From IMG/VR virus record IMGVR_UViG_2778261543_000007: 10,385 nt of DNA. The stretch is one strand, 5' to 3'. The notes beneath the pieces are model-generated. The model had not been told where the DNA came from. It saw only the letters and a list, made by a program, of their open reading frames with translations, and made no database searches. This document shows, piece after piece, positions 4,000 through 4,584 of this stretch. The stretch's first letter is position 1; every line of letters starts with the position of its first letter. The stretch comes from a virus (Duplodnaviria; Heunggongvirae; Uroviricota; Caudoviricetes). Both the position numbers and the translations under genes were made by a program.

Positions 4000-4584
4000 A
4001 TGAAAAGTATCCAGGACGTCCGCAGGCAAAATCTCAACGACTTGATCGACCGTGAATTCAATGGTGTTCAGACGCGGATGGCAGAAAAACTTGGAACTCA
4101 GGCAAATCTGGTAAACCGCTGGGCTCTTGGCAAGAAGGTTATCGGCGACCAGGTTGCGCGAAAAATTGAAGCTGCCGCCAATAAACCCCGTAACTGGCTT
4201 GATATCGATCGCTCGCTTTCTCAGGAAGGTTTTCAGCCTGTCGGCCCAAGCGACATTGGTCAGCTGGCGGCTCACAACCTGGAACGCTGGATGAGCGAAA
4301 GCCGCGACCTTTCAACACAGGGAAAACTTCACCGCGCATCCGGCGTCGCCCAGGTGACAATCAGCCGCCTGTTAAACAATGAGGTCAGCGTTTCCATTTC
4401 CACCCTGGAGAATGTTGCATCCGCATTCGGGCGTCACGGCTATGAATTACTGATTCACCCGCACGACCCTGCGACTATCAACTATGACCGCTCGCGCTAC
4501 GCTTTGTTACCCGAAACCGAGAAAGCAAAGATCGAAAGTTACATTGAATTTGTCATCAACCAGAACGAAAAAAACAAACAATAA
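4000..4584 (+). CDS. Immunity repressor candidate (cI position): two HTH-like segments, no recognisable S24 peptidase domain
   Basis: Location between the oR-like and pL-like operator clusters, divergent from the cro-like gene. HTH-like segments ...QTRMAEKLGTQANLVNRWALGK... and ...HRASGVAQVTISRLLNN... No well-spaced SD before ATG 4000. Confidence 0.6.
   Translation: MKSIQDVRRQNLNDLIDREFNGVQTRMAEKLGTQANLVNRWALGKKVIGDQVARKIEAAANKPRNWLDIDRSLSQEGFQPVGPSDIGQLAAHNLERWMSESRDLSTQGKLHRASGVAQVTISRLLNNEVSVSISTLENVASAFGRHGYELLIHPHDPATINYDRSRYALLPETEKAKIESYIEFVINQNEKNKQ

Follow-up and report, generated by a model that had tools for sequence, protein, structure and literature searches.

A phiV10-type immunity repressor without a peptidase domain, and its predicted removal from DNA by a LexA-controlled antirepressor

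Introduction

How can a prophage answer DNA damage if its repressor does not cut itself? The question is raised by a gene, here called rep, in the 10,385 nucleotides of tailed-phage DNA analysed here (the window; IMG/VR record IMGVR_UViG_2778261543_000007). Its product, Rep, shares with the repressors of the lambda cI, P22 C2 and LexA type a map position divergent from cro, the repression of pL and pR through palindromic operators and a link between induction and the SOS response. It differs from them in having neither an S24 peptidase domain nor an Ala-Gly cleavage site. An earlier note, made from the letters of the window only, had recognised a repressor in the cI position with two helix-turn-helix (HTH)-like segments and no visible autocleavage domain. 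It had concluded that SOS induction through self-cleavage looked unlikely and that derepression might need an antirepressor or another signal. Here, we place the gene in its family, describe the protein and its operators, and look for the partner that might remove it from DNA.

Results

The repressor gene and its relatives

The window is a portion of a phiV10-type prophage, and rep is the gene of an immunity repressor of the SPC32H Rep family. In tblastn searches of phage genomes, Rep was 100% identical to gp40 of phiV10, to ORF21 of vB_EcoP_ZX5 and to proteins of the O157 typing phages 9 and 10, among others. The TL-2011b protein is 98.5% identical, those of two Enterobacter phages reach 75-78%, and those of the Klebsiella and Salmonella phages within Uetakevirus, epsilon15 and SPC32H among them, 42-45%. 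A search of PDB sequences with phmmer aligned residues 1-190 of Rep with residues 2-197 of chain 5D50_A, named 'Repressor' (E 4e-42, 42% identity), and also matched the fragment 5D4Z (92-198; E 4e-20). The profile of the family, made of 51 sequences of which fifty are homologues from public data, matched 5D50 with E 2e-65. The entry 5D50 holds SPC32H Rep with the antirepressor Ant bound, and 5D4Z holds residues 92-198 of the same Rep alone. Besides these SPC32H chains, no significant PDB sequence match was found for the Rep of the window, nor for the Ant of the related prophage L006 described below. The start of the gene is secure, since residues M1-K2-S3-I4 are invariant across the 51 homologues and the ATG aligns with residue 1 of SPC32H Rep.

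These similarities have left traces in the databases. The GenBank label of phiV10 gp40 reads 'putative transcriptional repressor; two helix-turn-helix motifs', and the epsilon15 record cites the HHpred match 5d50_A for its repressor (gp38). The exact protein (phiV10, ZX5) and the mechanism (SPC32H) are both already known, and the observation is not new. The rep region is present in 540 of 5426 complete E. coli genomes (about 10%). The best match to the window in this collection has 97.7% identity over 96% of its length, an exact match was found in none of these genomes, and the closest relatives of the prophage adjoin guaA in E. coli chromosomes. Compared with phiV10, the repressor is identical, whereas the prophage of the window has separate genes for a YqaJ exonuclease and RecT, and a Ser/Thr phosphatase.

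The neighbourhood of rep is that of a classical immunity region (Table 1). The gene lies between divergent pR-like and pL-like promoters, opposite a cro-like gene and the leftward replication genes, and is followed by a terminator and then by the pL-like promoter; the cI position assigned to it from the letters is thereby confirmed. The pL-like promoter heads an early-left operon with orf50, orf99, the YqaJ exonuclease, RecT and downstream genes. Gene order around rep agrees with that of SPC32H, phiV10 and epsilon15. We found no LexA box of the form CTGT-N8-ACAG in the window, and the consensus flanks are absent from the five looser matches of the form CTG-N10-CAG. Therefore rep, cro and pL are not under direct LexA control.

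Table 1. Coordinates of the repressor gene, its protein domains and the surrounding signals, in positions of the window.
Feature	Start..end	Strand	Remarks
Remote perfect operator TTACCTCTGAGGTAA	1537..1551	.	Between the P gene and the DUF1064 gene
Remote perfect operator TTACCCATCAGGTAA	1599..1613	.	Between the P and DUF1064 genes; 62 bp from 1537, start to start
cro-like gene, 76 aa	3615..3845	-	Divergent from rep; PHROG 35 'transcriptional repressor', E 9e-13; without Shine-Dalgarno sequence
pR-like promoter TTGTTA-17-TATTAT	3871..3899	-	Promoter scan; serves the cro-like gene and the replication operon
OR operator TCACCCATAAGGTAA	3882..3896	.	1 mismatch; overlaps spacer and -35 of the pR-like promoter
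OR operator TTACCTATGGGGTGC, degenerate	3913..3927	.	2 mismatches, in the right half; seventh site
OR operator TTACCTGTTGGGTAA	3930..3944	.	Upstream of rep; adjoins a conserved TATT..TTTAAATT stretch
rep, ATG start, 194 aa	4000..4584	+	Open reading frame list of the window
Rep N-terminal domain, aa 1-70	4000..4209	+	Cro/cI-type HTH; probable DNA-binding role, by comparison with SPC32H Rep (PMC9986798)
Flexible linker, aa 71-88	4210..4263	+	Poorly conserved; 22% identity to SPC32H Rep
Second HTH_3-like domain, aa 89-151	4264..4452	+	Apparent counterpart of the MDD of SPC32H Rep (PMC9986798)
C-terminal tail, aa 152-194	4453..4581	+	Apparent counterpart of the CAD of SPC32H Rep, 'TetDloop' (PMC9986798)
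Intrinsic terminator of the rep transcript	4605..4624	+	8-bp GC-rich stem, then a T run; terminator also in the phiV10 annotation
OL operator TTACCTAACAGGTAA	4642..4656	.	20 nt upstream of the pL -35
pL-like promoter TTGACA-17-AATTAT	4676..4704	+	Promoter scan; 10/12 matches, near-consensus
OL operator TTACCTCAACGGTAA	4704..4718	.	Abuts the pL -10; spans the start region

Domain architecture of Rep

The Pfam family HTH_3 matches Rep (E 1.2e-9) in two stretches, the best of which covers residues 106-147, and a HTH of the Cro/YdaS type was assigned to residues 21-61. Both HTH matches were found in 51 of the 51 family members. We predicted the structure with AlphaFold from the alignment of the 51 sequences (pLDDT 83); this model replaced a single-sequence one that was unusable (pLDDT 45). 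It has two helical domains, a disordered linker between them (residues 74-83, pLDDT below 50), then an extended segment and, at the C-terminus, a long helix. The two HTH-like segments noticed at first reading are thus real domains of the predicted fold. Every Foldseek match at E<=0.001 was a chain of 5D50 or 5D4Z, with TM scores of 0.70-0.75 when normalised to the C-terminal fragment. Window Rep and SPC32H Rep/epsilon15 gp38 belong to the same genus, share a three-part architecture and have similar lengths (194 aa in the window against 198), yet overall identity to SPC32H Rep is only 42%: 54% in the N-terminal domain, 33% in the domain corresponding to the MDD and 46% in the one corresponding to the CAD. 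Residues N36, R40 and W41 in the recognition helix of the N-terminal domain are invariant in the family, as are Y162, L170 and F184 in the C-terminal tail. We also considered a recent internal duplication of the two HTH domains and rejected it, since the similarity between the N- and C-terminal domains is not significant (local score 30 over 18 aa).

The peptidase is missing by every approach we used. Pfam found no Peptidase_S24 (PF00717) in the Rep of the window at E<=1, and this family is absent from the 25 listed for the 51 members. Searches of PDB sequences and profiles returned no S24 chain for Rep, and the LexA/cI C-terminal peptidase domain is not among the 50 Foldseek matches listed. 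The C-terminal half of the model is mainly helical, and no Ala-Gly or Cys-Gly cleavage site was found in the linker RSLSQEGFQPVGPSDIGQ (aa 71-88). The earlier statement that Rep has no S24 domain thus withstood the search for a cryptic S24 fold by structure prediction.

Could Rep nevertheless cleave itself through a cryptic dyad formed by S130 and K175, and be directly inducible by RecA? Each of the two is found in at least 90% of the family members, and the 45 residues between them resemble the spacing of the Ser/Lys dyad in cI. Yet the fold is helical save for short extended segments and matches 5D4Z, whereas an S24-like beta fold was found neither by Pfam nor by PDB sequence searches nor by Foldseek; the linker also lacks the dipeptides at which cleavage would be expected to occur. 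In addition, a review ascribes induction in the SPC32H-type family to Ant (PMC7380047). The fold led us to reject S130/K175 as a dyad (AlphaFold model, Foldseek), and direct self-cleavage of Rep is extremely improbable.

Which of the two HTH-like domains reads DNA? The earlier note had imagined two DNA-reading heads that would suit paired half-sites. According to PMC9986798, SPC32H Rep is built from an N-terminal DNA-binding domain (DBD), a dimerisation domain in the middle (MDD) and, at the C-terminus, a domain (CAD) that tetramerises Rep through a p53-like tail and binds Ant. The protein is described as binding DNA as a tetramer, and the two DBDs on one palindrome are proposed to come from different dimers (PMC9638917). 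By this comparison the second domain of Rep would be a dimerisation module. The alternative is that both domains read DNA, so that each subunit contacts two half-sites or two kinds of site. In fact, of the two domains it is the second that Pfam HTH_3 matches better (E 1.2e-9), and its recognition helix retains an XRE-like signature (Q118 nearly invariant, R123 invariant); the authors of the ZX5 study, relying on a domain search, also gave DNA binding to the C-terminal HTH (PMC9782041). But the equivalent domain of SPC32H Rep is described as the dimerisation domain and its N-terminus as the DBD (PMC9986798), and the arrangement proposed for the tetramer has palindromes read by DBDs from different dimers (PMC9638917). 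The net charge of the N-terminal domain is +4 across the family, against 0 for the second domain in the window and a family median of +1, which fits one DNA-reading domain per subunit. Furthermore, enrichment was seen for a single palindromic motif, and what else is conserved in the OR spacer coincides with a -35-like TTGATT for pR. We thus regard DNA reading by both domains as improbable, and the idea of two heads gives way to that of one head and one probable dimerisation module.

Operator palindromes

The notion of paired half-sites fared better. With at most one mismatch allowed, the window contains six TTACC-N5-GGTAA palindromes where 0.16 would be expected (about 40-fold), and none of 200 shuffles gave six occurrences. 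The two OL sites are 62 bp apart, start to start. Operators of the ATTACC-N5-GGTAAT type at OR and OL are a trait of phages with SPC32H-type Rep, and the window has them. The TTACC and GGTAA half-sites, the three OR sites and the location of rep between divergent pR and pL are common to the window and to SPC32H and epsilon15. The three-site OR layout, with the position of the degenerate site at 3913, and the sites flanking pL are kept in SPC32H, epsilon15, Tyrion and BUCT711. Even the remote sites have precedents: the epsilon15 record marks such palindromes as repressor binding sites genome-wide and labels the counterpart of the site at 1537 'repressor; lysogeny'.

There are also differences between the two types. 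The central 5 bp of the operators contain G/C in the window and only A/T in SPC32H and epsilon15, and perfect OL sites number two in the former and three in the latter. These differences, seen at the level of sequence, suggest that the phiV10 type and the SPC32H/epsilon15 type are probably heteroimmune.

Start of translation of rep

The earlier note had observed that rep lacks a properly spaced Shine-Dalgarno (SD) sequence, and this is correct. In the 25 nt upstream of the ATG the sole GAGG lies at -18 to -15, and a GGAG or GAGG at -9 to -13 precedes most other genes of the window. The SD is also missing before rep in SPC32H, epsilon15, Tyrion and BUCT711, i.e. in all five members of the genus compared when the window is counted.

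It had been suggested that this recalls the leaderless cI message made from pRM in lambda. A leaderless rep mRNA would account for a start codon without SD within 5-12 nt, for the persistence of this trait in the five genus members, and for an operator (3930-3944) placed upstream of rep much like OR2 relative to pRM. It would be expected to go with a -10 element immediately upstream of the gene, but the hexamer at -12 to -7, ATTTTC, does not resemble a -10 element. Nor did the promoter scan yield a sigma-70 promoter for rep, and the candidate -10 elements that we picked manually match the consensus in 3-4 of 6 positions. The best A/T-rich ones, at 3974-3982, would give a short leader of 10-18 nt rather than none. 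The cro-like gene likewise lacks an SD, and weak initiation signals may simply typify both genes of the switch. Hence, we consider a leaderless rep message unlikely. The conserved TATT..TTTAAATT stretch upstream of rep is possibly a weak rep promoter region.

The antirepressor gene

If Rep is not cleaved, which protein removes it? The search for an antirepressor gene, advised earlier for the rest of the prophage, gave nothing in the window, where the best tblastn match to an Ant or Bro-N homologue had E 0.024 over 32 aa, and was successful in its relatives. Ant of the SPC32H type measures about 86 aa, and its gene in SPC32H has the structural genes on one side and the tail-spike gene on the other. 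An Ant of 85 aa is encoded at the same place in phiV10 and in the two closest complete E. coli prophages, L005 and L006. The Ant proteins of the closest full prophages are 85-87% identical to that of SPC32H (87% for the L005 copy), and L006 Ant matches the Ant chain of PDB 5D50 with E 4e-46. In both prophages ant is preceded by the LexA box TACTGTATAAATATACAGTT, at 21 nt from the ATG in L006; a LexA box accompanies ant in phiV10 as well. The TACTGTATAAATATACAGTT box is the sole LexA box of the 49.5-kb L006 locus, in which none is expected by chance. As in SPC32H and epsilon15, Ant with its LexA box is divergent from a tail-spike or tail-fibre gene.

Among the 36 phage records in which a full-length Rep homologue occurs, 35 encode Ant too. 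Of the 5426 complete E. coli genomes, 529 contain the ant region and 540 the rep region. Judging from these relatives, the window's own prophage probably also carries ant and its LexA box, outside the window. Ant is labelled 'hypothetical' in phiV10, in ZX5 and in RefSeq E. coli genomes.

Discussion

We propose, with a probability of about 85%, that the Rep of phiV10/epsilon15-type phages (Uetakevirus) is a non-cleavable immunity repressor that is taken off DNA by a LexA-controlled Ant. The oligomeric states, the identity of the DNA-binding domain and the mechanism of Ant in this model come from SPC32H; the domain architecture, the lack of S24, the operators, promoters and terminator come from the window, and Ant with its LexA box from the closest relatives. 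In an E. coli-like host, with the prophage integrated at guaA, the HTH of residues 1-70 would read the TTACC-N5-GGTAA palindromes, the HTH-like domain of residues 89-151 would act as a dimerisation module, and the tail of residues 152-194 would join dimers into tetramers and dock the antirepressor. Rep tetramers on the three OR sites (3882, 3913, 3930) and the two OL sites (4642, 4704) would keep the pR-like and pL-like promoters off. Upon DNA damage, Rep, which has no S24 domain, would not cleave itself; cleavage of host LexA would free the promoter of ant, located outside the window and divergent from the tail-fibre gene. Ant would then settle on the C-terminal domains of Rep, break the tetramer and make Rep leave the DNA, reversibly.

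Several observations on relatives are consistent with this scheme. SPC32H Rep reportedly remains uncleaved during SOS, in work of Kim and Ryu from 2013. Tetrameric Ant is described as binding two Rep dimers and disrupting the tetramer (PMC9986798, PMC9638917), and a review has the SPC32H-type system induced by an antirepressor made after LexA self-cleavage (PMC7380047). By analogy with SPC32H, binding of Ant to the Rep of the window and the non-cleavage of the latter are what we infer. When the identical ZX5 repressor was overexpressed, free phage was abolished and lysis-gene transcription fell by more than 99.9% (PMC9782041). TL-2011b, whose Rep is 98.5% identical, was abundantly released after mitomycin C (PMC3293862). 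Prophages of the phiV10 species went up 21-fold and 47-fold with microcin Mcc1229, classed among the DNA-damaging bacteriocins (bioRxiv 10.64898/2026.05.26.727859). The earlier view on SOS induction must therefore be split. The part denying a self-cleavage route stands; the prophage should nevertheless be inducible by DNA damage, because the LexA box before ant means that loss of self-cleavage does not entail loss of SOS induction. The expectation that an antirepressor is needed agrees, at the level of sequence comparison, with a full-length homologue of SPC32H Rep and a LexA-controlled ant in the closest complete prophages.

How does this switch compare with others? Repressors of the lambda cI type are inactivated by proteolysis, whereas the Rep of the window would be inactivated by a protein partner, which would make the process reversible. 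Rep would also oligomerise in another way, by an HTH-like dimer module and a p53-like tetramerisation tail, if it follows SPC32H Rep as described in PMC9986798. Closer functional parallels are found elsewhere. Lemire and colleagues are said to have described, in 2011, the repressors of Gifsy-1/-3 and Fels-2 with their antirepressors. Together with 186 CI/Tum, these switches have in common with the present one a non-cleavable repressor, a SOS signal relayed by LexA, a small antirepressor and the possibility of cross-talk between prophages (PMC7380047). Yet the proteins are unrelated, and the Rep and Ant of Uetakevirus form a family apart.

The phiV10 and ZX5 records, and the ZX5 paper, present Rep without a link to the SPC32H-type Ant. 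The immunity region is labelled merely 'helix-turn-helix domain-containing protein' in the 540 of 5426 E. coli genomes that carry it. Joining phiV10-type Rep to SPC32H-type Ant is thus missing from public annotation, which is an annotation gap and not new biology. Its importance as a discovery is small, and it matters for annotation: the link leads one to expect SOS induction, by way of LexA, of these common guaA prophages.

A second candidate for the inducer of Rep lies next to ant. In many phiV10-type phages a gene for a Bro-N 'anti-repressor' is found just downstream (ZX5 ORF4, PhiV10p23, L006:12777-13472), and one could imagine that this protein, rather than the small Ant, is the chief inducer. 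In ZX5, antagonism to lysogeny has been demonstrated for ORF4, the Bro-N protein, rather than for the small Ant: overexpression of ORF4 lowered the prophage titre about 1000-fold and transcription of the repressor by 75% (PMC9782041). Furthermore, the C-terminal ~75 aa of the Bro-N protein share 42-43% identity with Ant (E 2e-16 and 8e-16), so that it plausibly binds the same surface of Rep. However, SPC32H and the closely related E. coli prophage L005 lack the Bro-N gene and keep the small Ant with its LexA box; in L006 the sole LexA box stands before the small ant gene; and ant is separated from the Bro-N gene by a terminator-like hairpin and a distinct promoter-like site. A leading role for the Bro-N protein is thus rather doubtful, and it is more likely an accessory or second-stage antirepressor than a replacement for Ant.

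The LexA-controlled Ant thus remains our preferred inducer of Rep, and some side observations bear on how the two antirepressors might share the work. In ZX5 ORF4 and its homologues a Bro-N domain is fused to a C-terminal domain that resembles Ant, and the latter domain helps account for the effect of the protein in the ZX5 experiments. In L006, the promoter-like site between ant and the Bro-N gene is overlapped by a Rep operator, which suggests a second-stage antirepressor controlled by Rep. Such a Bro-N::Ant protein could be made only once Rep starts failing and act as a positive-feedback latch that renders induction irreversible. Between the phiV10 (E. coli) and the epsilon15/SPC32H (Salmonella) immunity types, Ant is far better conserved than Rep (82-87% against 42% identity), and therefore it may cross-induce heteroimmune Uetakevirus prophages genus-wide. 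Tentatively, one might speculate that these phages have an undescribed switch in two layers, with Ant as a cross-inducer throughout the genus and Bro-N::Ant as a latch behind a Rep-operated promoter, though we would sooner bet against this arrangement than for it. Finally, a Rep operator adjoins the promoter region of ant in all members examined, and therefore Rep may tune its own antagonist.

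Rep operators beyond pL and pR

Within the prophage part (about 39 kb) of L006, one of the closest complete E. coli prophage loci, we found 14 TTACC-N5-GGTAA sites with at most one mismatch. Most fall between genes: close to those for the tail fibre and the holin, flanking the antirepressor gene ant, in the int-guaA interval and upstream of the portal region. The small-terminase gene has two at its start. In the epsilon15 record, the equivalent sites carry repressor-site annotation. Together, these sites and their annotation suggest a role for Rep in silencing or organising a large part of the genome, well past the two early promoters.

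In the window, the two perfect palindromes between the P replication and DUF1064 genes are spaced 62 bp start-to-start, like the OL pair (window 4642 and 4704), and this arrangement is kept in phiV10, SPC32H, L006 and L005 (another close complete prophage). The pair could point to a third promoter under Rep control or serve as a looping partner for OR/OL. In all genus members examined, a Rep operator also precedes the LexA box of ant by some 50 bp; Rep may thus regulate its own antirepressor, or else the divergent tail-fibre promoter.

Coordinates of the features discussed
Feature	Location	Strand	Context
Perfect Rep operator	window 1537-1551		intergenic, P replication gene / DUF1064 gene
Perfect Rep operator	window 1599-1613		intergenic, P replication gene / DUF1064 gene
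Separate YqaJ-type exonuclease and RecT genes	window 5189-7120	+	
Ser/Thr protein phosphatase gene	window 8467-9126	+	adjoins int
Rep operator	L003:20013-20027		intergenic, ant / tail fibre
Rep operator	L004:20877-20891		intergenic, ant / tail fibre
Rep operator	L005:12882-12896		intergenic, ant / tail fibre
Rep operator	L006:12112-12126		intergenic, ant / tail fibre
Promoter-like site and Rep operator	L006:12465-12507		between ant and Bro-N gene
Terminator-like hairpin	L006:12600-12613		
Bro-N 'anti-repressor' gene	L006:12777-13472		E. coli Z1323CEC0003 prophage; outside window
Bro-N 'anti-repressor' gene, ZX5 ORF4	L010:1078-1773		outside window

Antirepressors

In many phiV10-type phages a Bro-N 'anti-repressor' gene directly follows ant; it is missing from SPC32H and L005. 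Judged by sequence, its product is a Bro-N::Ant-like fusion, because its C-terminal domain of ~75 aa shares 42-43% identity with the small Ant (E 2e-16 and 8e-16). The Ant-like domain of ORF4 in phage ZX5 may explain why overexpression of this protein antagonised lysogeny. In L006, a perfect Rep operator, TTACCTTTGAGGTAA (position 12493), directly follows or overlaps the promoter-like TTGCAA-17-TATATT, and the fusion gene may therefore be repressed by Rep, forming a positive-feedback latch once Ant begins induction. Yet, the terminator-like hairpin complicates such an interpretation.

Across the phage collection, Ant homologues of the E. coli phiV10 and Salmonella epsilon15/SPC32H types share 82-87% identity, whereas Rep shares only 42% (46% in its C-terminal domain, CAD). 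Ant could act across immunity groups, in the way that Gifsy phages are reported to show cross-talk between prophages.

Early-left operon and switch genes

Within the species, the early-left operon has a mosaic make-up. In phiV10 a small DUF1382 gene adjoins int and recET is annotated as a fusion, whereas the window prophage has a phosphatase gene at the former place and separate exonuclease and RecT genes.

No Shine-Dalgarno-like sequence was found upstream of the cro-like gene (window 3615-3845, minus strand), whose best anti-SD duplex reaches only -2.5 kcal/mol. Hence, both switch genes, rep and the cro-like gene, are SD-poor, while nearly all other genes of the window have good SDs.
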